A stretch of 24,935 nt of DNA from a virus (Duplodnaviria; Caudoviricetes): positions 1 through 24,935 of the IMG/VR virus record IMGVR_UViG_3300029183_000045; one strand, 5' to 3'. Position numbers and translations under genes: made by a program. The notes under the pieces are model-generated. The model was not told the DNA's origin. It did not search any database and saw only the letters and a list, made by a program, of their open reading frames with translations. Below are positions 7,645-24,933 of the stretch, piece after piece. Each line of letters opens with the position of its first letter. Within the stretch, counting starts at the first letter, position 1.

Positions 7645-8073
7645 TTACGCCGTGCCCTCATCAGGTGAAACGTGGTATTCATACGCCGTGTCGGTTTCCG
7701 CATCCTGATCAAACGGACAGGTTCGAGGTCCGCCAAGGATCGCTACCCCGGCAGGAACGGTCGTAGAAGTTCCACGAACCGCGACCGCTCGAACGAAGCG
7801 CTCCTTCGGCCGGATCACGTCAACGATGGCCGTTGTCTCGGTGGCGTCCAGCAACACCTGGGTGTTGGCCAGATCAGCCGCCGAAGCCATACCGGTTGCG
7901 GTATCCTGTTGGACCTTGATCCCGTTGTCAGCGGCTGAAGTGCCGAACACGACAACGAACTTGACCCATTCCCAGTTTTTCATGTCAATTTCAGTGCCGT
8001 TTGAATCCGATGTTCCGGCGGTCACTTCGTCAAAAATCTTGACGACCTTGAAAGCTTGTGAGTCTAGACTCAT
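7645..8073 (-). CDS. Capsid decoration/cement-like protein (~142 aa)
   Basis: AGGAG RBS before ATG 8073; IDMKNWEWVKFVV...KVQQD...RFVRAV beta-sandwich pattern right after the capsid gene. Confidence 0.6.
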   Translation of the reverse strand: MSLDSQAFKVVKIFDEVTAGTSDSNGTEIDMKNWEWVKFVVVFGTSAADNGIKVQQDTATGMASAADLANTQVLLDATETTAIVDVIRPKERFVRAVAVRGTSTTVPAGVAILGGPRTCPFDQDAETDTAYEYHVSPDEGTA

Positions 8074-8089
8074 TTCTTTTGTCTCCTGA

Positions 8090-9409
8090 TTAGGTGCCAC
8101 ACTTCAGACGCACGAACGCTTCTTCTAGCGTTGGCATCCCGTCAGTTTTCAAGTGAGCGAGGAAGCCCACCTGGTTGTTTTCCGCGTACAACTCAACCAG
8201 CCGCTTCATGGTCATGTCGAGTGCATCGGCAATCTCGTAGTAGCGCCAGTTGCAGAGCATGGCGACGTAGTTGCCGTTGGTGAACGTGTTGGGAGAACGT
8301 TCGGATTCATCAACGGGGAAACCCAAAAGCATGTCTTCAGGGTTCCCGCCATCCTGCATCCTTCCGGCACCGACTCGGAACAACGGCTGGTTGTCGCTGT
8401 CTTTCAACTTGGCAACCTTGCTGATTCCATCGCGGTGCATCATCCAGCGAACCCCGCCACCGTTGCGGTATTGACTTTTCAACGTGTACTTCGCGTTGAT
8501 CAGTCCGTCGAAAGTGAAGTTCGTGGTGGAACCGGTGACCACATCGCGACTGGTGGAGATGCCGTCGTTATCGGCGGTAAAGACCCCCAACGGACGAAGG
8601 TTACCGTTACCCGTCAGGTAGGCATCCTCCAGCAACTCGCCAGCGTCTCGGCCCATTTCGTACTGGACTTCCGACTCGATGTCGGCCGATCGGCGGAGCA
8701 AATCTTCCGATACCTTCACCAGACCGTGGGCATAGTGAGGATGCAGAACCTTTTTGCCGTACTTCAATGCCGAATCAGCGGTAGGCGCTTCTAGCTCCTG
8801 CCCCCACCCCCAAGTGGAAAGGCGAGCGGTTCGCTTGCGAATTCCCAATGATCCCGCTTCGCGAACGGTGTGAATTCGGGCATAGCGTCGAATGAACAGC
8901 AGGTCGTCCACTTCCTTCAGGATCCCGGCGGCGAACTGTTCAGAAGCCAGAAGATAACCGGCTCGCTCGGAATTGTCCGATTGAATCGCGGTCATCGACC
9001 GATCGCCTGTGGTGATGTAGTTCATCCAGGCATCGTGGTAAGCCTGACACGAACGATTGCCACCGGTGATCTCGGTATAACGTGGTGAACCGTCGTTGTT
9101 GAATCCGTTGCGAACCTGAAGCTTTTGGGGCTGGTTTGCGGTGACGGGGTCGTTGGTTTCAACTTCCCTTCTCAGATCGTCCTGGGTTTGCAGGGCGTTT
9201 TCCATCGACCGATCAAGGGCTTCCAGCGATTCCTTACGCTTGGCAGCCGCCAGGTGGTCCGAAGAATCGGACAACATCTGGTCGAATTGTTCCTGGTAAT
9301 CGGCAGCAAGGAGGCCGTTTTCGTCTTCGTGCTCAGCGGCCAGCTCTTGCGCCTTGGTGATCAATCGGGCTCGCTCTTCACGATGCCACTTGGCGGTTTT
9401 TGTTGCCAT
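8090..9409 (-). CDS. Major capsid protein, HK97 fold, with N-terminal delta (scaffold) domain (439 aa)
   Basis: Coiled-coil N-terminus; AGYLL, KVSEDLL, YLTGNGNLRPLGV, LKDSDNQPL, LLGFPV, ELYAENNQVGF motifs. Confidence 0.95.
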   Translation of the reverse strand: MATKTAKWHREERARLITKAQELAAEHEDENGLLAADYQEQFDQMLSDSSDHLAAAKRKESLEALDRSMENALQTQDDLRREVETNDPVTANQPQKLQVRNGFNNDGSPRYTEITGGNRSCQAYHDAWMNYITTGDRSMTAIQSDNSERAGYLLASEQFAAGILKEVDDLLFIRRYARIHTVREAGSLGIRKRTARLSTWGWGQELEAPTADSALKYGKKVLHPHYAHGLVKVSEDLLRRSADIESEVQYEMGRDAGELLEDAYLTGNGNLRPLGVFTADNDGISTSRDVVTGSTTNFTFDGLINAKYTLKSQYRNGGGVRWMMHRDGISKVAKLKDSDNQPLFRVGAGRMQDGGNPEDMLLGFPVDESERSPNTFTNGNYVAMLCNWRYYEIADALDMTMKRLVELYAENNQVGFLAHLKTDGMPTLEEAFVRLKCGT

Positions 9410-12834: not shown

Positions 12835-12980
12835 TCTTCAGCTTCCTTGTTCTTATTGATTCCGAATCCAATGGTGACCAGCAATGCACCAGTCAACAGA
12901 AACGCAATCGATGGATGAATGAGCCATCCCCCAATGGCCAACAAAAGAAAACCACCGATCAAACATCCGTTTTCGATCAT
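12831..12980 (-). CDS. Small two-TM membrane protein between terL and portal (49 aa; absent from ORF track)
   Basis: Hand-translated MIENGCLIGGFLLLAIGGWLIHPSIAFLLTGALLVTIGFGINKNKEAEE; ATGA and GTGA overlaps at both ends; usual slot in HK97-like phages. Confidence 0.8.
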   Translation of the reverse strand: MIENGCLIGGFLLLAIGGWLIHPSIAFLLTGALLVTIGFGINKNKEAEE

Positions 12981-14725
12981 ACGGCAATCACTCCCCTGTC
13001 AGCGTAAACGCTTCGCTTATCCTTGATGTGTGCGACTCCCCAGTGAGACATGACCGATGTAACCATGCCATCAATTTTTCGGTAGTCGTCACGCTTTGGT
13101 TTTGCCAGGATCCGCTTGCCAACCGCATTTTCTTTAGTTGTTGTATGTCCAGCCTGCCAGTCAAGGCAACGATTGGGCTCGTGAAGAACCCGGCACTCCA
13201 GCACATCCGCTTCAAAGTCGTCAATCGGGTGTTCCATCATCGTTGCCGATTGGGGGAACTCGATTAAATCAATTTTGGGATAGTCCGATTCCAACCAGTT
13301 CGCAATCACATCGGCAAACGTCTGGTCGAATACCACGCAACTGGTATTCTCAACGTAGCCTTTCATTTTCTCCATGATCCAGCTTTGCTGGATGGTATCC
13401 CCGGGAATGATGATTAAATCACCATCTGCCTCCCAGTCAAAAAACGCTGCTTTGTTAGTGTTCTTCGTGGCATAGTCTTCAGTGATCCACAGATGAGTTC
13501 GCTGAATGATTTGCTCGCCATGCTTTTGTGAAACGGTAATTGCGGACATGTCGCGAGTTTTCGACAAGTCCATGCCGATCGAGAACGGACCATCAAACTC
13601 CAACCCGGATTCCTCGCACCGTCGCCACTTGTCCATTCGCAACCATTGGCTGGCTGTATGCTGCCAGATGTTGAGCCGGTACATTTTGAAGTCGGCCATC
13701 CCGGCAATGGTCGATTTGCTTTCGCTGAAGTCGGCCAGGTACTCTTCTTCGTGCGTGGTGTGATTCCATGCGGGGTTTGCCATCTTCCCGAACTTGACCG
13801 GATCGCTTTCCAGCTCTTCATCAGTCAGATCCTGTGGCGATTCGTAAATGGCAGTGAACAACTGATCATTGGGCGTCGTTCCATCGGCTACCGTTCGGGC
13901 GTAGTCCTGCCGCTCTTTTCCGTATCCATCCGGGTTGTTTCCAGCGGTGGACACTTCGATACGCAACGGTTCTTCTCGCGAGATTCCGGCCCGGCTGATG
14001 ATGCGAATAAACGAACGGTCTACAACGTGCGTTTCATCAATGGCGATGTTTCCATTGATTCCTTCTTTCGTCCGTTGCGATCGTTCGTCTGCGGATGACA
14101 AGGGCTTGTAAACGGACCTGGTCGGCAGGTGGGTGATCGAATATTCATTTTTGTTGATCTTGCAATCGTCGCTCAGTTTTTTGGATTGTTCGACCATCGC
14201 CACCGCATGAGCCATCGCGATTTTGGCCTGGTTTCCGTCCTTGGCACCGCCAAACGTTTTCGCCCCTTCTTCGCCGTCACCACAAGTCAAATACAATGAC
14301 CATGCTGCAAGAGTAGGACTTTTCTTATTTTTTTTTGGAACCCAAATCGAAGCCTGGTTAAACCGGCGGATGTCCCGTTCCCATCGTTCAGAATGTCGCA
14401 TCCACCCAAACAGACGCATGGTGCATTCATACTGCCAATCGGGTTGGCCTTTGCCGCTGGCGATCCATTCGGCGTACTTGTTGGCACGTTCAACCGATAG
14501 CTCACGTCCGCCGTCATCCCAATCTTGTGTGATTATCTGGTCAACATCAGGGTTGCCGCTACGCAGGAGCATCCTTTCTCCCGCGTGTCGGCCCTCGTAC
14601 AGCCGGCAGAGGTTTTCAATCCACCAGACAACCCATGCACCCTCTTCAGGGACAAAGTAACATCCGTTACCGACCGCCAGTTCATCTGATTTGTTCCGCA
14701 TCCATGCGGAGGTGATGGCGTCCAT
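12977..14725 (-). CDS. terL: Terminase large subunit (582 aa)
   Basis: Walker A-like PKKNKKS, Walker B IAIDETH, STAG coupling motif, nuclease GMDLSKTRD and KIDGMV. Confidence 0.95.
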   Translation of the reverse strand: MDAITSAWMRNKSDELAVGNGCYFVPEEGAWVVWWIENLCRLYEGRHAGERMLLRSGNPDVDQIITQDWDDGGRELSVERANKYAEWIASGKGQPDWQYECTMRLFGWMRHSERWERDIRRFNQASIWVPKKNKKSPTLAAWSLYLTCGDGEEGAKTFGGAKDGNQAKIAMAHAVAMVEQSKKLSDDCKINKNEYSITHLPTRSVYKPLSSADERSQRTKEGINGNIAIDETHVVDRSFIRIISRAGISREEPLRIEVSTAGNNPDGYGKERQDYARTVADGTTPNDQLFTAIYESPQDLTDEELESDPVKFGKMANPAWNHTTHEEEYLADFSESKSTIAGMADFKMYRLNIWQHTASQWLRMDKWRRCEESGLEFDGPFSIGMDLSKTRDMSAITVSQKHGEQIIQRTHLWITEDYATKNTNKAAFFDWEADGDLIIIPGDTIQQSWIMEKMKGYVENTSCVVFDQTFADVIANWLESDYPKIDLIEFPQSATMMEHPIDDFEADVLECRVLHEPNRCLDWQAGHTTTKENAVGKRILAKPKRDDYRKIDGMVTSVMSHWGVAHIKDKRSVYADRGVIAV

Positions 14726-14734
14726 GCCTGCTGT

Positions 14735-15214
14735 CTACGCTTTTCGTTTCCTGGATGGTGTTTTTGATTTATTGGCACTTCGATTGACCTGCATTCCGTT
14801 ACGGTCGCTCGCTGTCATGCCGAAACATGCGTGAAATTGCTTGATGATCTTTTCACAATCCCGGCGGTTTCTGACCGCAGGGTGCATCACGACAACCTTC
14901 GTTTTTGCATTGGTAAAATACCTGCCTTGCTTCTTTTCAACTCGTAAACAAGCCGCCCGTTCATCCCACGCATCCGCGTAAACTTCCAACGCCTCCAGAT
15001 CGGGCAACGTCAGCAATCCCATTTCCAAAAGAATCTGGCCTGTTTTTTTCCATCGCTTTTTCCCTTCGGCTCCCAAATGCCGTGGAGGGGGTGGCAGCTT
15101 GTCCAGAACCTCTCCTTTCGGTTCAAGGTCTGGATCTCCGTGCTTGTCTTTTCGATGGGTTCCGTCAAGTATCTTTAGCTTGGTCGGTGTCGGTGGTGGT
15201 CCTCGTTTTCCCAT
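14735..15214 (-). CDS. terS: Terminase small subunit, P27 family (~159 aa)
   Basis: MGKRGPPPTPTKLKILDG, PPPRHL, HPAV, FGMTASDR motifs; alternative GTG start at 15223. Confidence 0.92.
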   Translation of the reverse strand: MGKRGPPPTPTKLKILDGTHRKDKHGDPDLEPKGEVLDKLPPPPRHLGAEGKKRWKKTGQILLEMGLLTLPDLEALEVYADAWDERAACLRVEKKQGRYFTNAKTKVVVMHPAVRNRRDCEKIIKQFHACFGMTASDRNGMQVNRSANKSKTPSRKRKA

Positions 15215-15578
15215 TGGCTTCACTCAATTGCTGTTGGCGTTGCTCCCAGTCTTTTTTCCAGTCGTAGTTTCCTGATTCTTCTTTTGCTGTTTTTTTTCCG
15301 TGGCAGTCCCGGCACAAATTTTGATGGTTTGCCTTGTCCCAAAAAAGTTTATGGTTTGGAGTTGGTGGTCGTCGAATGTGGTCGATGTGGTTCGAATCAT
15401 GGGCCGTCAGCTTTCCCTTTCGTAAACAGTGAACGCACAATGGCCACTTCTGCTTGAAACGTTTCGTGTATCTGTTCCATCGCCGGGTGTATCCCTGTTG
15501 ATGCGTGTTAGTTTTGTTCGTCGTGCACCCACACTGTCCAACGATCCGACCGCAACGACATGGCTTAAGCCTGGGCAC
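15165..15578 (-). CDS. HNH endonuclease, terminase-associated (HK97 gp74-like, 137 aa)
   Basis: PLCVHC...IDHI...LFWDKANHQNLCRDCHGKKT; adjacent to terS. Confidence 0.92.
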   Translation of the reverse strand: MPRLKPCRCGRIVGQCGCTTNKTNTHQQGYTRRWNRYTKRFKQKWPLCVHCLRKGKLTAHDSNHIDHIRRPPTPNHKLFWDKANHQNLCRDCHGKKTAKEESGNYDWKKDWEQRQQQLSEANGKTRTTTDTDQAKDT

Positions 15579-15603
15579 GATGCTGCCTCCGATGCTGCCT
15601 CCG
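15578..15603. repeat. Tandem 12-bp duplication (CGATGCTGCCTC x2) containing the HNH RBS
   Basis: Minus strand reads GGAGGCAGCATC GGAGGCAGCATC GTG. Confidence 0.85.
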
Positions 15604-15616
15604 TTTGATTGATGGC

Positions 15617-16534
15617 CTAGACACCAGTGGCCTCCGGCAACGCCGTCACTTGATCGTAGGGACCGACGTTGAAAAGTCGCTTTTCATGCCGGGGCATCTT
15701 CTGGAATTCATTTACCGCAAAATCAATGGCCGCTTGCTGATCCTCGGGCGTCATGTTTTTCCACACTTCCGACTTGACGTTAGCCGTGACCGCGTGGTTT
15801 GGAATGGCTTGCGTCTTTGTGACGAATTCCTGAATGTCTTCTCTCGTTCGTGGCTTTCCTGTTCGAGGATCAATGAACGCCCACTCTGAATGAATCCAGC
15901 TTTCGTGATGGATGGCCGGCCATAATTCCATGTTCCAGTTGTCATGCTGTCTGGTTGAACCACCGTTGGCCATGTTCGCAATGACTGGAAACCGGCCTTT
16001 GATTCTCAACAAAAACTCTTTGAATCCTGCGTTGACTTCTCGGATTTTTTCGGGTTTCAATACATCGCCAACCTTTGACGTCGTTGTGCTTCCCTCGATA
16101 CGACAACTCATTTCCGAATGCAGTACCCGGCAACCATCCAGAGCGATTCCATGAACCCGATCGTTGCTCTGCCAGCCGTGAACAATTCCGACCGCTCGAT
16201 CGATCCACTTTTCGTTTGACCAATCGTAAAAATGGCGATCGCGATTTCCCGATTTGTTTTTCTTTACGATCGGCAACAACCAATCTCGGTTCATATGAGC
16301 GCAGAACCAGTTGGCTCCGAAATGGTTGTGGGTCGATGCGAAATGAATGTATACCGGAATGTTGTATTTCCGATAGAATTCGGCTACCGCGATACTTCCA
16401 ATCTGGGTATCGACCTGCCCACCATCAGCGAATTGTGGAAGCACCAGAAACCGTGGATTGATTTCGACGATCTTGTCGACATCATCCAAGGTGAAAAAAT
16501 TTCGTTTTCCTGTCCACAGGAACCGATTGATCAT
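15617..16534 (-). CDS. Putative glycoside-hydrolase-like TIM-barrel protein (~305 aa)
   Basis: ATG 16534 just after the upstream stop; YDWSNEKW...VHGIALDG...PVIANM pattern resembles GH-type barrels; family not certain. Confidence 0.45.
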   Translation of the reverse strand: MINRFLWTGKRNFFTLDDVDKIVEINPRFLVLPQFADGGQVDTQIGSIAVAEFYRKYNIPVYIHFASTHNHFGANWFCAHMNRDWLLPIVKKNKSGNRDRHFYDWSNEKWIDRAVGIVHGWQSNDRVHGIALDGCRVLHSEMSCRIEGSTTTSKVGDVLKPEKIREVNAGFKEFLLRIKGRFPVIANMANGGSTRQHDNWNMELWPAIHHESWIHSEWAFIDPRTGKPRTREDIQEFVTKTQAIPNHAVTANVKSEVWKNMTPEDQQAAIDFAVNEFQKMPRHEKRLFNVGPYDQVTALPEATGV

Positions 16535-16536
16535 AG

Positions 16537-16746
16537 TCAGCACTCCGTCTTGACAGACATGACATTGACCTTGGGTGGTGTTTCGATTGGTTCTGGCTTG
16601 CTTTCCTCCCACAGCAACGGCAAAAACAGGGCCAGCAACAATGCGACAATCACCGCCACGAAAAGCACGATGGCAAATCCCAAAGCGGTGGCGATGCAAG
16701 AAACAAGCCACACAACGACATTCAAGATTTTTTTCAGGATTTTCAT
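16537..16746 (-). CDS. Small membrane protein (69 aa)
   Basis: Basic N-terminus and ~35-residue hydrophobic stretch; ATGA overlap with the protease stop. Confidence 0.7.
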   Translation of the reverse strand: MKILKKILNVVVWLVSCIATALGFAIVLFVAVIVALLLALFLPLLWEESKPEPIETPPKVNVMSVKTEC

Positions 16747-17447
16747 TTGTCCAACTCCGCCATCAGGGTTTGAATCGGCCGAGTGTTACAACAACGACTG
16801 GGCCAAGTCATCTTGATTGATCTGCCATCACTCATGACAACATCGCCATCCCACCAGAACCAACCGCCAGAAACCACTCCAACGATTTTTCCTGATTCAC
16901 TGAATAGCGGCCCTCCTGAATCGCCCGGAATCAACGAGCAATCGGCGTAGATGATGTTCTCGTCTGTCGGTCGCGATGCTTTCGCTTTGAAGAATCGGAT
17001 TTCATCGAATCCGTTTGCACCGCCGAACCCGGCAATCTGAAATTGATCGCCGTGAACAATGGGATTCTCGGCAACGGTGAACGCTTCAATTCCTGGCGGA
17101 ACCCACACCCACACCAACGCGATGTCTGACTTTTCATCGAAGTGAACCACCTTTGATCGATGCGAGTTACTGCCGTCCTGATAGGTCACCTTGATCGCTC
17201 GGCGTCCCTGATCGCTGGAAACAGCGTGATAGGCGGTCAAAACATAGCCCTCGAATCCGCCGTTGGTTTCCTTGCCGGTGACTCGAACAACCGCCCCCGT
17301 TCCCATGCCACCGTCAAGCGTCACCATGACAATCGCTTCGTGGTTTTCTACTGGATCGACAAATTGCCACAGGCCGGAATCCTTTCCAACCTGGGCTTCA
17401 AGTTCCGTGGCAAAAATCAGAATCACAATGGCGAATGCAGTTTTCAT
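16743..17447 (-). CDS. Secreted trypsin-like (S1) serine protease (234 aa)
   Basis: Signal peptide; catalytic triad motifs LTAYH, SDIAL, GDSGGP. Confidence 0.92.
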   Translation of the reverse strand: MKTAFAIVILIFATELEAQVGKDSGLWQFVDPVENHEAIVMVTLDGGMGTGAVVRVTGKETNGGFEGYVLTAYHAVSSDQGRRAIKVTYQDGSNSHRSKVVHFDEKSDIALVWVWVPPGIEAFTVAENPIVHGDQFQIAGFGGANGFDEIRFFKAKASRPTDENIIYADCSLIPGDSGGPLFSESGKIVGVVSGGWFWWDGDVVMSDGRSIKMTWPSRCCNTRPIQTLMAELDK

Positions 17448-17869
17448 CCCGACAGGCTCCGTTTAGCCGATTCCAGATGGGTAAGTACTGCCGTCTTTTC
17501 GTCCGGTGCCAGTTCTTTACCGGCCTCGATCACGTACAGAAGCGAATCGGCAATCCGTTTTGTTTTCCGTTCGTTGTCAGACATGCGCTGATCAAGATTT
17601 ACAAAGCCCTCATTTTGTGTCGCGTTGAGTTTGTCAAGGATCTCGTTGCTTTTGTCTTGAGCGCGACTGATGTGGACAACCGCATCTGCGGTTTTCTCCC
17701 CACTTTCTGCCGTCCGGTCCATGAACTTTTCGTTCTTGTCAGCAAAACGATTCGCCAACTTCCATGCTCCCCACAGGAACAACAAAAAAAGAACGAACAC
17801 GCCACCGAGATTAAACGCCTTGTCCATCCACGACGGCAATGCTTCGCCTTGAGAAAGCAGGAACATCAT
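17444..17869 (-). CDS. Holin-like protein: single N-terminal TM plus coiled coil (141 aa)
   Basis: TM LGGVFVLFLLFLWGAW followed by a heptad-rich charged tail; architecture of BhlA-like holins. Confidence 0.5.
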   Translation of the reverse strand: MMFLLSQGEALPSWMDKAFNLGGVFVLFLLFLWGAWKLANRFADKNEKFMDRTAESGEKTADAVVHISRAQDKSNEILDKLNATQNEGFVNLDQRMSDNERKTKRIADSLLYVIEAGKELAPDEKTAVLTHLESAKRSLSG

Positions 17870-17873
17870 CCGG

Positions 17874-18770
17874 TCACCCTTCCCTTCGGTTCAGCCGCGA
17901 AATGTCGTCTGCTATTTGTTCAAGTGATTCATCGCCTGGGGCTGTTCTGGACAGATTTATTCTGCAACCAATCATTGCGTCATCTACTTTTACAGGAACA
18001 GCAGTCCAACTGACGGGAATCATTTCACCGTTTTTCGCCCAGACCACGTCGTTTGGAGAATGCGTGACCTCATCCCATGCCATCGAGTGAAACATATGGC
18101 ATTCAGACTCAGGATAGGCCGACCCATTTCGACGCTTGTAGTGAATTGCCTGGTGCATGTTTCGACCGATCAACTGTGATTCGTTGTCGTAACCCAAAAG
18201 TTCCACACAACGCCGATTGATCAATTCGCAACGTCCATCAGTGTTGACAAAGTAAAATGGATCCGCCGCATCAGACACGGACTGCAATAAAGCATCGTCA
18301 ACGCGAACCTGGTTTGGGTTCTTCCATCGTTTCGATTCGACAGCAACAGCCAGATAAAGAAAACCGATCACACTAATAGCCTGCAACGGTTTCCATACAT
18401 AACCTTCCAATCGGTATGCCGGCGCAACGAATTCCAGTGCCCAGATTCCATGATTGCCACCGCAAAACACGAAAAACAAAACCGCAAACAACCATGTCAG
18501 CGACCACAACCCTCGCTTGATGGTCCACCATGCAATAAAAAAGCCAACAAACAGATAACAGGTGTTGATGATCAGATCGAAAACGATATGAAACCAACCA
18601 AGCGACGGATTCTGGGACCAGCCTTGGCCGCATTCCCAGCGCGGTGGAAAGTCACCGGTGCCGAGCCACCATTCAGCAAAAGGGCGAGGGCTGCCGGACA
18701 AGCTGTGCAATGACACCATGTACACAGCAAGTCCGATCAGCAACAGGGGGAGGGTGATAAACCATTTCAC
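17874..18770 (-). CDS. Ethylene-receptor-like membrane sensor domain fused to PAS, no output domain (298 aa)
   Basis: DFPPRWECG, HIVFDLII..CY, FFVFCGGNH, PAYRLEG..K pattern of the ETR1/Slr1212-type binding domain; PAS with VNTDG, IN...LLGY, LIGRN, KNGEMIPV. Confidence 0.75.
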   Translation of the reverse strand: MKWFITLPLLLIGLAVYMVSLHSLSGSPRPFAEWWLGTGDFPPRWECGQGWSQNPSLGWFHIVFDLIINTCYLFVGFFIAWWTIKRGLWSLTWLFAVLFFVFCGGNHGIWALEFVAPAYRLEGYVWKPLQAISVIGFLYLAVAVESKRWKNPNQVRVDDALLQSVSDAADPFYFVNTDGRCELINRRCVELLGYDNESQLIGRNMHQAIHYKRRNGSAYPESECHMFHSMAWDEVTHSPNDVVWAKNGEMIPVSWTAVPVKVDDAMIGCRINLSRTAPGDESLEQIADDISRLNRREG

Positions 18771-18786
18771 GAGACGAAATAAGCTC

Positions 18787-19620
18787 CTATGGGCAGGCTG
18801 GGCAGTTCGCGTTCATCATCCGGCGATTGATGCCCCAATTGCGTGGCAGGAACCGAGCCGCGAATCTCCCGACGTTTCTGGCAGGTTCTCCTACTTGATA
18901 TTGAAGGGTGGGTGATTGCCTCGCCCATTGGCGAGTCACGCCATAACCACCGCCACCGGTTGACACGAATCGACCATTGGCGAAATAGCCAGAACCGATG
19001 GCGTCATGAATCTGGTCGTGCGGGTGACAATCCGAATTCGGATCGACAAACCGGAAATGGCCCGCTTGCCGGTGGTATTCCATGTGCGGTTCATTTGTCG
19101 GCATGGTCCATCTTCTCGCTCGATAGGTTCGTGTTCGAGTTACCGATCGCTGGAATGTCGGCAGGTCGCGATACGTATAAGATTGAACTCGATTGCCGCA
19201 ATTTGTCGCATTGCCCCAATTTCCGCAGTTCGAAGGCGCTTGTAGAACCAAAACCTGATTCCCGCAATTGGACCCCGGCTGTGACCAACCGCCTCCACCG
19301 CTCCAACTGGAAATGATCTGTTGCTGTTGCGGTGGACAAACCCCGGTTGGACAAACCCCGTCCGGGCAGGTGGGACAGACTTCCTGCGTTGCCTCAACGT
19401 GACCTAACGGGCGAAACACCTGCTTGAGCGTGTCGGAACCCTTGACCTCGACGGCATCCACCGATGGCATCGACCAGTCGAAATCCGCATCCCACTTAAC
19501 AACGTTGAATGTATTGGGCGAACTCCAATCAGCTTCGCTGGACCAGGTTGCCGGGCCGTGATTTGCCAGCGCCATTGCAGGCAACGACATCACAGCAATT
19601 CCGAAAATCACTTTATTCAT
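18787..19620 (-). CDS. Secreted Cys/His-rich low-complexity protein (277 aa)
   Basis: Signal peptide; CPTCPDGVCPTGVCP, three NCGN repeats, His cluster, terminal CPACP. Confidence 0.7.
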   Translation of the reverse strand: MNKVIFGIAVMSLPAMALANHGPATWSSEADWSSPNTFNVVKWDADFDWSMPSVDAVEVKGSDTLKQVFRPLGHVEATQEVCPTCPDGVCPTGVCPPQQQQIISSWSGGGGWSQPGSNCGNQVLVLQAPSNCGNWGNATNCGNRVQSYTYRDLPTFQRSVTRTRTYRARRWTMPTNEPHMEYHRQAGHFRFVDPNSDCHPHDQIHDAIGSGYFANGRFVSTGGGGYGVTRQWARQSPTLQYQVGEPARNVGRFAARFLPRNWGINRRMMNANCPACP

Positions 19621-20386
19621 TTCTCAATCCTTTCACGATTGCGTTGAGAATTTCTGCGTATTCCGACGAGTTGGATGGCGGATTTTCTGCAATGTATTCG
19701 TCGATCGCCATGCGACGAAATTGATTCCAGTTGTTTCTGGATGGTGTTTTCTGCCCGAATTCAGTGAGCGAAGTTTCGACAATCTTTTTGGATGCTTCCT
19801 GTGTCGTTGCAGCGCGAACAGAGTCAATCACCCGCTCGTAAGCGTCTGCCAGCCCCTTGGCAAATGAAGGTTCCATTTCGATCAGCGGTAAATCATGACC
19901 CTTGAATCGAAACGCCTTGATTCCATCAATCAACTTTGAGTGATCGGTAACGGGTTCGTCTGGCTCGTCCGGTTGATCTGGTTCGTCTGGCGGTGGCTGT
20001 GGTCCCAATGTGCCAATCGTGGCCTTGAGGGTTTCAGTCCACCAACCGTTTTCGGTGATCGCCAGAATCTCGATCGACCACCTTGAACCAGGAGGACCAA
20101 CCAGCAGAAACTCGCCATCGGAAACTTTGTGAAGCGGGACCGGGGGCCAGGGGTTTTTGTCGGCGTAGGCTCGAACCAGTGGATTCGGGGCGCTAGTTCG
20201 AACTACCACCGCTTCGCGTTCTGTCTGAGACAAAACCTTTTCGTCAAGCGAGGTATCGTTGAAAGTGATTGCCTCGATCTTCTTGACCGAAACCTTGACC
20301 GATTCAATCGTTGATTGCGTTTGCTGAGCGAAACTGCACTGAAACAAAAACAACCATGCCAGCCAGAATGAAAAAATGGTTCTCAT
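19613..20386 (-). CDS. Secreted two-domain protein with PDEP linker (~257 aa)
   Basis: ATG 20386 overlaps the protease TGA; signal peptide MRTIFSFWLAWLFLFQCSFA; PQPPPDEPDQPDEPDEP linker. Confidence 0.75.
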   Translation of the reverse strand: MRTIFSFWLAWLFLFQCSFAQQTQSTIESVKVSVKKIEAITFNDTSLDEKVLSQTEREAVVVRTSAPNPLVRAYADKNPWPPVPLHKVSDGEFLLVGPPGSRWSIEILAITENGWWTETLKATIGTLGPQPPPDEPDQPDEPDEPVTDHSKLIDGIKAFRFKGHDLPLIEMEPSFAKGLADAYERVIDSVRAATTQEASKKIVETSLTEFGQKTPSRNNWNQFRRMAIDEYIAENPPSNSSEYAEILNAIVKGLRNE

Positions 20387-21351
20387 GCCCACACCGGTTC
20401 CTTGTCTCGAAGCCAAGCGAAGATGTTTTGAATCTGAGCGATTCCGTAACCGTAAACCGGATCAAAACCGGGCTTGCCTGCGTCCAACATGAATCCCTGC
20501 TCGGCGAAGAACGTTTTCCATTCCTCGTAGCCCTTGAGTTCAGGCAGCATCAGTTGACGGCGTTTCTGGATAATCAGGCAAAGCAAGCCAACATGGTCAG
20601 GAGTCGCCATCGACGTTCCATCCATCGAGATAGAACCTGTCTTGCTGCGAGAATCAGGGGCGATAATGTTTTGGCCAGGTGCAGCCGTGTCAATCGTTGG
20701 CCCTGTCGATGAAAACCCTGTTGCCTTCAAATCCTGCTTGATGGCTCCCACAGTTTGGGAATCCTTCAGGTTTCCCGGTGGCCCAATCGTGTTTTGACCT
20801 TCCCCAGCGTTGCCTGCCGCCACAACGTCAAGAGACAATCCATTGGCGTAGGCTTCGTCCTGTGCGCGTTGATCCTCGGGCCGTTCGTTTCCCGGTGCGG
20901 ACCCAAGTGACCGGCTCAGTAGATCGCAACCATCTTTTGCAGCCTGGACCGCAGCGGCATTGATCCAGGAAGTTCGCCCTGACCCACGATCGCCCAGAAC
21001 CTTGTAAATCGAAATCGTCGCGCCGGGTGCAAGGCCGAAACCATCGAGACCAGCGATGATCCCCCAGCAATGCGTTCCATGCCGGTTGCCATCATCGGCC
21101 TTGTTCGATTCGCCGGTGTAGTCACGGCGGTTGACCACTTTTGACTGGTCAAGGTATTTATGCTCAAGCGTTCCACCGGTATCACAAACGCCAACGTGGA
21201 CGCCTGTGCCATCAATGCCTTCATTTCGAACGGCCTCAAGTTCATCCTTGATCCATGCCCGGTGCCACAAAAACGGGACGGTCATTGAGAATGCGTAGTC
21301 TTCGTTCACTTCATGATCACCGGGAATGCCGATGACTCGATCATCGCTCAT
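20383..21351 (-). CDS. Subtilisin-like S8 serine protease (322 aa)
   Basis: VGVCDTG (Asp), NRHGTH (His), AAGN (oxyanion Asn), GTSMATP (Ser); no signal peptide. Confidence 0.95.
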   Translation of the reverse strand: MSDDRVIGIPGDHEVNEDYAFSMTVPFLWHRAWIKDELEAVRNEGIDGTGVHVGVCDTGGTLEHKYLDQSKVVNRRDYTGESNKADDGNRHGTHCWGIIAGLDGFGLAPGATISIYKVLGDRGSGRTSWINAAAVQAAKDGCDLLSRSLGSAPGNERPEDQRAQDEAYANGLSLDVVAAGNAGEGQNTIGPPGNLKDSQTVGAIKQDLKATGFSSTGPTIDTAAPGQNIIAPDSRSKTGSISMDGTSMATPDHVGLLCLIIQKRRQLMLPELKGYEEWKTFFAEQGFMLDAGKPGFDPVYGYGIAQIQNIFAWLRDKEPVWA

Positions 21352-22144
21352 GACGATGCTCCCCCATGAATGATGGGAACATAATGTTGTTGAAACGGCT
21401 GATTGTTGTCGTCCGCCGGCGGTACGGTGTCGAAATCGATCGGTGCGAGTGCGACTGGTTTACGTTTAGCCGTTTAAGATCGCTGAGCTTCACAAACGCT
21501 GTACCATCCGAATTGTGAATATGCGGCAATGACCCAACGTCTGAAACGTTGACCTTGGCAAATCCCATTGGGATCTTCGAAACATCAACCGCATAGGAAT
21601 CCCGAGTACGCCATTCGTAAGGGAAACCCTCAAGGGGAACCCGCATCGGTGATTGAAGTTCAGTATCGGTATCGATCGGCTGTGGCAATCGAGCCGCGAT
21701 CGACACGCCCGGATCATCCGATGCAATTACGCCAATGAATAAATCGATGATCTTTTTCAGAAACTCCACGAATCCGTCGGGATTCGCAATGATGGCGTCA
21801 ATGATCTTCTCGAAAATTGGAAAGCGCGGCTCGCCATCTTCCAGCGCAAATGCGACCATTTCATCATCGTGGACGTGCTGGGCTTTCATCCCGTAGTACG
21901 CTGCATCAACCAGGTCCGGATCAGCCAACACAGTTCGAATGTGCTGCTTCTGCTCATCCGTTAATCCGAATCTCGGGCGCAACATCTTCCGCATTTGCAA
22001 TCGGAAAAGCCGCTTGGCAAACGCATCATCAGCATTCTCGCGGAATCCCTGTCCTACCACCTCCTGCGCCGTCACGTTCGTAACCGCAACAACCACCGGC
22101 AAGCAAAAGCTCGCCATCAACAACAATGACAAAATTCGTTTCAT
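21341..22144 (-). CDS. Secreted hypothetical protein (267 aa)
   Basis: Signal peptide MKRILSLLLMASFCLPVVVA; amphipathic helix FVEFLKKIIDLFIG; overlaps the S8 start. Confidence 0.75.
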   Translation of the reverse strand: MKRILSLLLMASFCLPVVVAVTNVTAQEVVGQGFRENADDAFAKRLFRLQMRKMLRPRFGLTDEQKQHIRTVLADPDLVDAAYYGMKAQHVHDDEMVAFALEDGEPRFPIFEKIIDAIIANPDGFVEFLKKIIDLFIGVIASDDPGVSIAARLPQPIDTDTELQSPMRVPLEGFPYEWRTRDSYAVDVSKIPMGFAKVNVSDVGSLPHIHNSDGTAFVKLSDLKRLNVNQSHSHRSISTPYRRRTTTISRFNNIMFPSFMGEHRHER

Positions 22145-22158
22145 GGTTTCTCTCTCAG

Positions 22159-22371
22159 TTAAAGCACTTTCCGATCGCTGCGACCAGCAGCATGATTGTT
22201 ACGACTACCAGCGCCAGAATCACGGCCTTCTAGTATTCGCTCAAGTCGTTTTTTTTCATCTCTCAGTTTTCGCTCGATCTCTCCATCCACCTTGCCCAAC
22301 CCAAGCCAGATACCGATTTGCAGGATTCGCCTCCTAATTGCGGCGGCGCTCGACCTCGATCCGATATTCAA
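22159..22371 (-). CDS. Possible small coiled-coil protein (~70 aa)
   Basis: Within ORF 22159..22407; candidate TTG start at 22371 with AAGG upstream; EIERKLRDEKKRLERIL looks coding. Confidence 0.35.
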   Translation of the reverse strand: MNIGSRSSAAAIRRRILQIGIWLGLGKVDGEIERKLRDEKKRLERILEGRDSGAGSRNNHAAGRSDRKVL

Positions 22372-22591
22372 CGTGAGCCTTCTTGACCAAAACTCGCGAA
22401 CGGACATAGGTGACGATCGAGGTAACGCCTGTGATCACCGCGAATACACCCTCGACAATCCTGGTTGTCATCTCGACCAGTTCGCTTTGGGCTTCTGGCG
22501 TGATATGTCCCGTCACAACGACCACCGCCAGAATCGAAGCGAACAACGAAATCCAGAACTCTGAAGTGTGAAATCCTTTTTTGACGTTCAC
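22334..22591 (-). CDS. Holin-like two-TM protein (85 aa)
   Basis: KKGFHTSEFW N-terminal motif, two hydrophobic segments, YVRSR..VK and basic C-terminus. Confidence 0.65.
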   Translation of the reverse strand: MNVKKGFHTSEFWISLFASILAVVVVTGHITPEAQSELVEMTTRIVEGVFAVITGVTSIVTYVRSRVLVKKAHVEYRIEVERRRN

Positions 22592-23469
22592 GCTGCGGCC
22601 CTCCGTTGTGCGAATCCTTCAATCCATTCGTTCATTCGAACGTTCCAGAATTCCTCATCCGTCGTCAGCGTCATTCCCGGTGGCAACGGTCGCGGATACT
22701 CGCCATCACCCAACCAGACCAGGGTGACGTTTTCGTAAATCCCGGTCATCGGAAAATCCATCTGAGACTTTCCACGTGCCGACCATTGATCAGTTCTCAA
22801 GACACAATTCCGCATCTCGATAAAACCGCCAACCTCCGACCGCTTGAAGAATTGCCCGCAGGATTTGCCATCAGGCTTGTAGTCCGTTTCTGATCGATTG
22901 TCAGGCTGAGCAATCAGGCGAATCAGGCAATCGTCAATTTTGATATGAGGTGGTGTAAAGTTCGCCGGGTTCGCGTTGGACCCGTACTGGTAACTCAGAA
23001 ACGTGTGCCCTTCGAAAAGACAGTTGCGAATTTGACCGGACAAAAGCTGATCGTTCTCAATGCAGTCGTCGCGAATTCCGGTCATAACGGTGTTTGCAAC
23101 TTCCCATTCGCCGCTGTGCCTGGGCGAGAAACCATCCTCCACGTTGTCAATAAAACACCCGTCAACGACCTTTCGCCCGGACATTTCCATTCGAATGCCG
23201 TCGCCTTCGTAGTCGTTTTTCATCTTCCGCCAGTCAAAGTCTCGAGACTGGACGCCGATGATGTTGGCGTTTTTGACAGTGACCGGATGAGGCGACCATT
23301 TGATCGAGAACGGGTAGCGGTCTTCCTTGGCCTGAGTTTCATTAGCCAGAAACGTGGTCATTCCACAATCAAACACCGTTGGCTTCTTTAATGATTTTTG
23401 TTCAAACTGATCACGATAAACGCCGAACGGAGTTGTGATGATGTCAATGCCAACGTTTGGGTCGATCAT
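22588..23469 (-). CDS. Right-handed beta-helix (pectin-lyase-like) protein (~293 aa)
   Basis: Repeating IDNVEDGF / GIRDDCIEND / IRNCLFEG / IDDCLI / MRNCVL rungs; TAATG-coupled start. Confidence 0.65.
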   Translation of the reverse strand: MIDPNVGIDIITTPFGVYRDQFEQKSLKKPTVFDCGMTTFLANETQAKEDRYPFSIKWSPHPVTVKNANIIGVQSRDFDWRKMKNDYEGDGIRMEMSGRKVVDGCFIDNVEDGFSPRHSGEWEVANTVMTGIRDDCIENDQLLSGQIRNCLFEGHTFLSYQYGSNANPANFTPPHIKIDDCLIRLIAQPDNRSETDYKPDGKSCGQFFKRSEVGGFIEMRNCVLRTDQWSARGKSQMDFPMTGIYENVTLVWLGDGEYPRPLPPGMTLTTDEEFWNVRMNEWIEGFAQRRAAA

Positions 23470-24170
23470 TACGCCCCCCATTTCGCACTGGTTCCCGAGT
23501 AAACGCCGGCCTTATTTGCCAGGGTTCCCGAGTACACCAGCACTTGGCAAAGCGCACCGTTCATCCCGTTGGCTCCGTCGTGCCTTGCTCCGATCGTGAT
23601 TCCGTTCAATGTCTGCGATCCAGAGTTGGCGCTTATAACGGCAACTTCATCAATCTCCAAAAACGAAAACCCAGCGTTATAAAACGAAATCGCCGTGTGG
23701 AGATTAGTATCCGATGTTCCACCGGTTTGAGTTGTGCCTGCAAACTGAAACCATTGAGGGGTGGCGTTTGTTCCAAACGATTGACGGGCTCCACTGGTGT
23801 TCGAGTCGATAATATTTTGAGTGCTCGCCACCGAATCTAATTGGAAAACCGCTACAATTACCGAAGGCTGGGCTTGGGTGATCGAACCAAACAATTGGTC
23901 AGACCCATCAAAATCCAGAACATTCAACCCATTAACGGTTCGAGTTCCCGTGGAAGGAAGGTCACCAGCTCCTGTATTCGACACGCCAACGCTGCCTACC
24001 TTATCAGTCCAGGTCATGACGCTTGATGCGACCGAGATGGTGCTGGTATCTGAAGCATCCCAATTAGCCACAATCGTTCCAAAGCTTGACCAGTCAGGTT
24101 CAGAGCTCGCAACAATCCCTTGAGCGATCGGAGAGCTGATGCCGGATGCGATTGATTGAGCGATTGTCAC
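23469..24170 (-). CDS. ConA/LamG-like lectin-fold virion-type protein (233 aa)
   Basis: WDASD, WTDK, NGLNVLDFDGSD, IGAR...NGALCQVLVYSGTL, KWG motifs. Confidence 0.7.
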   Translation of the reverse strand: MTIAQSIASGISSPIAQGIVASSEPDWSSFGTIVANWDASDTSTISVASSVMTWTDKVGSVGVSNTGAGDLPSTGTRTVNGLNVLDFDGSDQLFGSITQAQPSVIVAVFQLDSVASTQNIIDSNTSGARQSFGTNATPQWFQFAGTTQTGGTSDTNLHTAISFYNAGFSFLEIDEVAVISANSGSQTLNGITIGARHDGANGMNGALCQVLVYSGTLANKAGVYSGTSAKWGA

Positions 24171-24442
24171 TGGCGAATTCCCACTACCACGGTTGGCGAA
24201 GTGGACCCGCTCAGATTGACCCGAACTTTACAAGGATGGTCGATCGTGAAGCGTTTGGCATTGTCGGAAGTAAAAGACATGTCTGGAACGTCCTTGGCAG
24301 TCGATCCGTTATCGTCTGTAAACTGAAGCTTGGCAGTTCCGCTTCCAAAGGTTCCGTCAGCGTCAAAAATTCCCGATCCTCCATGCCACTCCAGCCAGTC
24401 TGTGTTTCCATCCGCAGAAAGTGTCGTTTCCTGGGTTGCCAT
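24167..24442 (-). CDS. Small beta-sandwich protein (91 aa), first gene of the operon
   Basis: GGAGG RBS at 24447-24451, ATG 24442; GTFGSGTAKLQ...VRVNLSG; GTGA overlap with the next gene. Confidence 0.75.
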   Translation of the reverse strand: MATQETTLSADGNTDWLEWHGGSGIFDADGTFGSGTAKLQFTDDNGSTAKDVPDMSFTSDNAKRFTIDHPCKVRVNLSGSTSPTVVVGIRQ

Positions 24443-24457
24443 GTTTCCTCCATGCAC

Positions 24458-24511
24458 AAAAAAAAGCCGCCACCGGATCACCCTCTGCATAAGGGAAATC
24501 TGGTGGCGGCT
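24458..24511 (-). terminator. Intrinsic terminator-like hairpin in the operon leader
   Basis: AGCCGCCACC(A)GAT / ATC(C)GGTGGCGGCT stem with a CCCT/AGGG extension, followed by a U8 tract. Confidence 0.8.
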
Positions 24512-24535
24512 GTCGATATAAATGCAGTCTGTCGC

Positions 24536-24727
24536 CTAAGTTATGTTGTGAATTGTATTAGAATCCTCTGGAATGTCAAAATGCTTTTCCTTTACAATCG
24601 CCCACTGAGGATTGCAAATAACGACAACATCTGCTGCATCTTTAGATTCGAGGCTTATCACAATTGGCCCCAATCGCCAAAACTCGCCTTTCTTCAGCCT
24701 GATTTTTTTTTCTCTTGCATCCTGCAT
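24536..24727 (-). CDS. Small hypothetical protein, weakly CsrA-like (~63 aa)
   Basis: KIRLKKGEFWRLGPIVISLE...VVVICNPQWAIVKE echoes the CsrA strand pattern; start uncertain (24727 or 24748). Confidence 0.35.
   Translation of the reverse strand: MQDAREKKIRLKKGEFWRLGPIVISLESKDAADVVVICNPQWAIVKEKHFDIPEDSNTIHNIT
24552..24579 (-). promoter_or_regulatory. sigma70-like promoter TTGACA-N16-TACAAT
   Basis: Perfect -35 (24574-24579) and 5/6 -10 (24552-24557), about 110 nt upstream of the first gene. Confidence 0.75.
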
Positions 24728-24759
24728 TCGAAGAATCCATAAAATCAATCGCCACAGAA

Positions 24760-24809
24760 AAATAATGTGCGCACATTATTTCAGTGCGCAACTGAATAAA
24801 TTGTTCAGT
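24760..24809. repeat. Cluster of overlapping inverted repeats
   Basis: Perfect 22-bp palindrome AAATAATGTGCGCACATTATTT (24760-24781); TTCAGT-N5-ACTGAA (24780-24796); ACTGAA-N7-TTCAGT (24791-24809). Confidence 0.8.
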
Positions 24810-24933
24810 CGGCAATCGGGTCGTCACATCCAGTTGACGACACGTTGTTTTCCGGCTTCGCCTTTGCCCTATTGATTTCATCAATTGCATCGAGCAATCC
24901 TTCGGCTAACCGATGTTGATATGTTCCGTCTTG
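24805..24933 (-). CDS. 3' end of an upstream gene (partial)
   Basis: Frame open from the window edge: QDGTYQHRLAEGLLDAIDEINRAKAKPENNVSSTGCDDPIAD*. Confidence 0.35.
   Translation of the reverse strand, partial: QDGTYQHRLAEGLLDAIDEINRAKAKPENNVSSTGCDDPIAD

Follow-up and report, generated by a model that had tools for sequence, protein, structure and literature searches.

The window analysed here, a full virus record of 24,935 bases that represents a fragment of a phage genome, encodes a 298-amino-acid membrane protein (17874..18770, minus strand) in which an ETR1-type ethylene-binding domain (EBD) is joined to a single PAS domain, after which the protein ends with neither a kinase nor any other output domain. 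Both domains are known; the kinase-less EBD-PAS build is conserved and undescribed. Sequence comparison across the family indicates that the metal site of the EBD has been kept and that the ligand pocket and the signalling relay have been rebuilt. Its profile match makes the protein a member of the ETR1_N domain family, yet on this evidence it should not be filed as an ethylene receptor. We consider it to be a metal-site membrane sensor that likely tunes lysis, a tentative reading to which we give slightly less than an even chance. Searching the literature by titles and the starts of abstracts, with subscription papers outside the coverage, we found no paper on phage EBD proteins.

Domains and genomic setting of the EBD-PAS protein

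The gene begins with a GTG codon, and its product is supported by the ORF, Pfam, TIGRFAM, a structural model and codon use. Pfam ETR1_N (PF25487) matches residues 57-132 with an E value of 1.7e-6 and 28.6 bits, above the cut-off of 27. This match confirms the ETR1-type domain claimed in an earlier note on this DNA, and disposes of the reservation made there that the domain might not belong to that family. The PAS domain (aa 162-275; 17946..18287, minus strand), delimited by Pfam, motif spacing and structure alignment, likewise exceeds the cut-offs of PF00989 (23.3 bits against 22.6) and TIGR00229 (24.3 against 22.9). The stop codon falls ~23 residues past the PAS core, and no kinase continuation is seen beyond it in three frames, where the only annotated long ORFs are a 141-aa ORF and an S1 protease gene. 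The description of one PAS followed by a stop, with no output domain, is therefore correct.

Pfam and alignments place the EBD at aa 36-150 (18321..18665, minus strand). Its features are an FPPRWECG motif that contains C47, three TM helices, the residues D65, Y72, C103, H107 and K127, and a family-specific W149. By alignment, the C103-x3-H107 element (18450..18464, minus strand) is the equivalent of the ETR1 Cys65/His69 copper site, and it is present in 12/12 family members. Hydropathy gives four hydrophobic segments, not three, at aa 3-21, 57-75, 84-102 and 125-143, the last three being the TM helices of the EBD. The segment at aa 3-21 (18708..18764, minus strand; start codon putative) forms an extra N-terminal helix that is missing in the other eight aligned family members. 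An AlphaFold2 model built from a nine-row alignment (pLDDT 85, pTM 0.55) has three long EBD helices, at 55-86, 90-112 and 119-147, and a PAS fold. The PAS aligns with the cytoplasmic PAS of CitA (8bjp; VIA-align) with a Z of 14.9 and an rmsd of 1.9 over 107 residues, and the structure matches to cofactor-free, FAD, LOV and heme PAS domains all lie within ~2 Z units of each other. Its subtype, H-x3-[IL]H-x8-[YV]-x4-C, occurs too in the host kinases P0002-P0004; the His/Cys motif is retained in 8/10 family members, and H226 is not conserved in the family. PDB sequence searches returned no solved EBD structure, the structural match list being filled by the PAS part, and PHROGs gave no match to the 298-aa protein.

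The ORF list and Pfam place the tail, capsid, S49 protease, portal, terminase and HNH genes all on the minus strand. Upstream of HNH and terminase runs a co-oriented block of membrane and secreted proteins that includes the 298-aa gene; the block ends, and the head genes begin, at the HNH, small terminase and large terminase genes (12977..15578, minus strand; Pfam). It comprises, all in this orientation, an 85-aa two-TM protein (22334..22591), an S8 subtilase (20383..21351; PF00082, E 1.4e-37), several N-terminally hydrophobic proteins, the 298-aa protein, a 141-aa one-TM protein (17444..17869) and an S1, trypsin-like protease with an N-terminal hydrophobic segment (16743..17447; PF13365, E 1.3e-16). 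The 141-aa ORF begins 4 nt past the stop of the 298-aa gene, and the S1 protease gene, which had been placed next in line by the earlier note, does follow, with a 4 nt overlap with the end of the 141-aa gene. Directly upstream of the EBD-PAS gene lies a 277-aa protein (18787-19620) whose start is signal-like and which carries repeats of CPxC and SNCGN motifs along with a stretch rich in His. This protein has no family match; judging by its motifs, it is a possible metal-binding partner.

The 298-aa gene has a GC content of 0.495 and a GC3 of 0.529, and its GC, GC3 and codon adaptation all fall inside the range of the 29 phage genes compared. A promoter/terminator scan of the region gave results at chance level, and no RNA holder is listed for it. 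The region is present in two aquatic metagenome runs, both of one study, and one Logan contig, possibly the source of the window itself, covers 15000-24832 with zero differences. In run X1, the depth is ~1150-1190 near HNH (15000-16190), 400 near the right end (23448-24878) and 170-230 over the EBD block, and the contigs have loose ends at 18801 and 23448. The head region may be common to related phages of the X1 sample, with the EBD block differing between them.

The kinase-less family, its origin and its metal site

A HMMER search with aa 1-157 against 1.84 billion representatives (E <= 0.001) gave 776 matches, the best 150 of which are listed; Pfam was run on 69/149 listed non-self matches and a family profile on all 149. 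The best four non-self matches of the 776 are 119-343 aa long and have no kinase domain. Among the matches listed, at least nine relatives (P0125, P0126, P0127, P0130, P0147, P0154, P0158, P0197 and P0214) have the build of the window protein, that is, an EBD, a short junction with a conserved Trp and a PAS, and they stop shortly after this PAS or after a second, degenerate one. ETR1_N scores for P0125, P0126 and P0147 are 43-51; Pfam is weak for the PAS of P0197 and for the EBD of P0158. The nine rows of alignment A4 share 23-44% identity with one another. Between the EBD His and the PAS motif the spacing is 100-103 for 7/8 measurable members and 108 for one, as compared with 124 in P0003, a host kinase whose PAS is of the same subtype and whose linker is ~22 residues longer than that of the family. 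Eight of the nine relatives were looked up; their contigs measure 0.9-81.7 kb, the longest being that of P0158, and at the 90% identity level each of the eight is a singleton. P0154, whose contig has just 943 bases, may be cut short.

In a quick 154-row tree of the EBD segment, the ten EBD-PAS proteins form a clade with the EBD-only P0128 and P0152 (SH-aLRT 97). The same 12 fall on one side of a branch in a 60-row tree that includes an EBD protein of the phage Molly, there with an SH-aLRT of 75 and with more long-branch rows added. No kinase-bearing row lies inside the 12-row clade in either tree. A single origin of the clade is likely as judged from these trees, in which the branches are long, and the shared derived residues give independent support for it. 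Viral context is established for the window copy alone among the 12 members. P0133, P0134, P0184, P0212 and P0264 are more short, divergent EBD proteins that lie outside the clade, P0133 with a PAS_3 domain and found on nine contigs; they suggest that the kinase has been lost repeatedly.

These relatives bear on the possibility, raised as an objection in the earlier note, that the window gene arose by recent, neutral truncation of a host kinase. A whole-protein word-index search speaks for such an origin, having returned three long kinases only and no near-length relative. HMMER, however, reveals a family that has no kinase, whose derived residues are shared and whose spacing is fixed, and the window gene has phage-like codon use and an intact frame. 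The objection fails because the nearest homologues, among the matches listed, are kinase-less EBD-PAS proteins; as far as sequence can tell, the 298-aa protein is not a recent truncation, and we find that explanation hardly credible. Viral contigs scanned with the protein or with alignments of it, using narrow patterns, yielded no family member, Molly being the sole match in one of the scans. PF25487 is found in 0 of 15 terminase-related records, all of which are fragments (8-55% complete) in which the control was silent too, and tblastn against cultured phages gave nothing significant, whether the query was the window protein, either of its halves or P0147.

The closest kinase-bearing EBDs (Planctomycetota and others; L040-L080, P0135-P0137) open with the same FPxRWxCG motif. 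A genome scan with this subfamily gave 41 loci, 29 of them in Planctomycetota, and one genome (G016) holds two FPxRWxCG EBD kinases. A crude kinase motif is seen at 29 of the 41 loci, six more lie in frames of at least 365 aa, and six are short; considered as kinase-less members, the six short loci proved to be frameshifted or cut host-type fragments. A metagenome scan (47/64 parts) gave at least 19 loci, none of the kinase-less family; by their ORF starts, these are host-type EBD proteins, kinases or fragments. When 401 planctomycete genomes were searched with A4 at 1e-32, four matched, with frames of 529-728 aa, and the two inspected are kinases. No kinase-less member was found in these 401 genomes, with six candidates scored per genome, and the large terminase gave no match in them at 1e-100. 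The FPxRWxCG EBD histidine kinases resemble the window protein in the N-terminal motif and the overall EBD and are the likely donor subfamily; in P0003, too, a PAS of the window protein's subtype follows the EBD. Unlike the window protein, the FPxRWxCG kinases retain the Ile/Pro/Ile/Lys/Thr residues, a coiled-coil linker and HisKA-HATPase. These comparisons suggest that the 298-aa protein likely derived from a planctomycete-type sensor kinase. The shared FPxRWxCG start and the 29/41 loci in Planctomycetota also make a planctomycete the likely host of the phage.

The EBD is like that of two receptors for ethylene, Arabidopsis ETR1 and Synechocystis SynEtr1 (Slr1212), in having three TM helices and equivalents of Asp25, Tyr32, Cys65 and His69. 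AzoEtr1 of Azospirillum shares these features and also has an EBD followed by a PAS, there ahead of its kinase (PMC11819568). The 298-aa protein differs from the ethylene receptors in that it has no kinase or other output, in its changed Ile35, Pro36, Ile62 and Thr94 positions, in the deleted linker and in being a phage late gene.

ETR1 numbering is given here by spacing and conserved bacterial columns, the alignment being without the ETR1 sequence itself. D65, Y72, C103 and H107 fall, with ETR1 spacing, in columns occupied by D, Y, C and H, respectively, in 100% of 121 canonical bacterial EBDs. These four residues had been singled out in the earlier note together with a Lys; the Lys, K127, is one column off in the 121-EBD alignment and matches the host Lys (97%) in a closer set after a one-residue insertion. 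Changed in the window protein are V75 (Ile35), G76 (Pro36), F100 (Ile62) and Q130 (Thr94). We compared the pocket in the 12 clade members with that in 137 other rows, which are mostly kinases and their fragments, not all classified. C47, Y72, C103 and H107 are invariant in the clade (12/12), which at 23-44% identity points to selection on the metal site. The Asp25 equivalent is Asp in 6/12, Asn in 5/12 and Gly in 1/12, as against 99% in the other rows, and the Lys91 equivalent is kept in 5/12 as against 97%; the ETR1 relay is degenerate in this respect, and a loss of sensing would fit too. Around the pocket, the Ile35 equivalent is present in 1/12 (89% of the other rows), that of Pro36 in 0/12, with Ala, Gly or Phe instead (95%), and that of Thr94 in 0/12, with Gln in 11/12 and Gln or Glu family-wide (94%). 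The Ile62 equivalent is likewise found in 0/12, with Phe in 11/12 and Phe or Leu family-wide (89% of the other rows); etr1-4 is Ile62Phe.

In published work, Cys65 and His69 bind copper, and Asp25 supports binding and bridges to Lys91 for signalling (PMC10266040). Ethylene binding needs seven residues, all of which AzoEtr1 retains (PMC11819568), and I35, P36 and I62 are among the residues essential for it (PMC6586836). In ETR1, I62A reduces ethylene binding (PMC8879215), P36L leaves <5% of binding (PMC3212723) and T94M is described as disrupting binding (PMC6913735). Since the equivalents of Ile35, Pro36, Ile62 and Lys91 are mostly lost in the family, ethylene is a doubtful ligand of the 298-aa protein. 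Ethylene as the ligand of the ethylene-receptor-like sensor of the earlier note is not supported, as three of the seven required residues (Ile35, Pro36 and Ile62) are changed here and family-wide, a point that the note had missed.

Lysis candidates in the window and in other phages

Within the window, the link to lysis is positional only. The 141-aa protein, a candidate holin-like or spanin-like partner by topology and position, has one TM (aa 14-32) with a basic stretch after it and a helical tail. It has no holin match in Pfam, TIGRFAM or PHROGs, and weak matches to Rz-like spanins (E 0.041 and 0.093); no convincing relative was found in viral contigs, cultured phages or the 401 planctomycete genomes. 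The term holin-like describes its topology and position only: of the holin-like gene reported 4 nt after the sensor gene, the 4-nt gap is real and the holin identity has no family support. A complex prediction of the EBD-PAS protein (A4, aa 29-298) with the 141-aa protein scored 0.00 (mark 0.32), which is no evidence either way. The 85-aa protein matches the holin phrog_297 weakly (E 0.019), from its first residue, and is the better holin candidate of the block. No endolysin was recognised among 22 window ORFs with Pfam or among 16 with PHROGs.

A 305-aa ORF at 15617-16534 is soluble-looking and, by eye, of the glycoside-hydrolase barrel type; it has no family match and no PDB sequence match, and could be a hidden lysin. 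In the terminase relative L004, a trypsin-like ORF is seen by eye at 1221-2711, and the phage contig L018 has, at 7653-9173, an S8 protease amid small membrane genes. S1/S8 proteases may substitute for a lysin in these phages.

Of 50,697 phage records, a canonical EBD query matched eight, which are those of the Maribacter phages Molly and Colly. Molly1_65 (Molly_1, MT732451; L016 5932-6801), annotated as hypothetical, is 289 aa long and scores 60.9 bits with ETR1_N, with no other Pfam domain. It directly precedes an amidase endolysin (phrog_435, E 2.7e-27), after which comes the terminase, and the gene before it encodes a 148-aa protein with a hydrophobic segment, as seen by eye. Like the window protein, which it resembles in size, Molly1_65 carries ETR1_N, has no kinase, is encoded ahead of the terminase in a late membrane block and retains CxxxH. 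Unlike the window protein, it belongs to a separate lineage, has a C-terminal domain without a Pfam match, adjoins a recognised amidase endolysin and, in alignment A1, has Asn at Asp25 and Asp at Lys91. It branches outside the 12-member clade in the 60-row tree, which suggests a separate capture. By analogy, the Molly arrangement lends support to a lysis link of the EBD protein, and the evidence for this link is stronger outside the window, in Molly, than within it.

In the ESM Atlas, ETR1_N proteins of 119-145 aa form clusters in which, of the few members that carry a taxonomic label, 50-71% are viral. Gp108 of the Cellulophaga phage phi19:1 (L093 4203-4925), equated with the fold match R9ZZL0 by its 240-aa length, resembles the model weakly in structure (E 7e-4, TM 0.25). 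It has no Pfam match; the gene before it is weakly holin-like, and a lysozyme lies 1.5 kb further on. It is possibly another membrane-PAS protein in a lysis region.

Proposed role and alternatives

In our preferred reading, in which the late expression, the cytoplasmic location of the PAS, the binding of a metal, the nature of the cue and the action by contact are all inferred, the 298-aa protein would be an intact, selectively kept one-component sensor that is made late and sits in the inner membrane with its PAS on the cytoplasmic side. A soft metal such as Cu(I) would likely be held at Cys103/His107, and the cue would likely be a metal, redox or a small gas other than ethylene. The linker deletion would couple the PAS closely to TM3, and the protein, acting like an antiholin, would directly contact the membrane protein of 141 aa or that of 85 aa and alter triggering and, with it, the time at which the host bursts. 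The position of the gene directly upstream of a one-TM gene, in a co-oriented block before HNH-terminase, backs this reading; that the scanned ORFs hold no endolysin and that the 141-aa protein is without a holin match weaken it. For the phage family, a further proposal is that the rebuilt copper site and the PAS form a two-input, kinase-free switch (gas, copper or redox on the one side and cell state on the other) that gates the holin by contact, which we regard as possible, if somewhat unlikely. Lysis inhibition in T4 involves the holin T and the antiholins RI and RIII, with superinfection as the cue. The proposed model is like it in that a dedicated protein fits holin triggering to conditions (compare the N4 preprint 10.1101/2025.11.12.688109), and unlike it in that no homology is shown and in that the cue would be a chemical one, received at a metal site.

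The EBD bundle and the PAS might instead be reused as oligomerisation modules of a non-sensing structural protein of lysis or the envelope, a holin- or antiholin-like scaffold. The degenerate Asp25-Lys91 relay, the Phe that fills the pocket, the two clade members without a PAS and the late-block position all suit such a protein; a pure scaffold would not, however, need a Cys and a His that are invariant in 12 low-identity proteins, or a PAS motif kept in 8/10, and we consider it unlikely. The earlier note had also offered a dominant-negative decoy, which would pair with host EBD kinases and silence a stress or biofilm pathway. ETR1-type domains do dimerise via the TM domain, and Planctomycetes have the same FPxRWxCG EBD subfamily on kinases, but the deletion of the coiled-coil linker and the change of many host-conserved EBD positions would make pairing harder. 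Genes for host takeover tend to be early ones, and this gene lies in a late block; its operon position and the deleted linker both weaken the decoy idea, and we now hold it to be quite unlikely.

As the record is a fragment, the protein could be one half, the sensor, of a phage two-component system that is split, its kinase or receiver being encoded beyond the assembled 24.9 kb, and phage kinases and PAS proteins do turn up in a viral fold search. No kinase or receiver is found among the 22 ORFs scanned, however, and the neighbours are membrane and protease genes, which leaves a split system improbable. The invariant Cys and His and the degenerate relay would agree as well with a moron that binds copper, serves to buffer or remove metal in the membrane of the infected cell and has no role in lysis. 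A low-capacity membrane site with a retained PAS would make a poor sink, though, and a similar domain stands directly before the endolysin in Molly; such a moron seems to us decidedly improbable.

Lysis timing is known to be controlled by holin alleles, membrane energy and superinfection. A metal-site sensor in the late membrane block would, if true, add chemical sensing to these controls, and the cultured phage Molly is a ready bench model for the lysis question. The family is also a natural experiment, in which the copper ligands are kept and ethylene-critical positions are changed, and it could reveal what other ligands this domain has.
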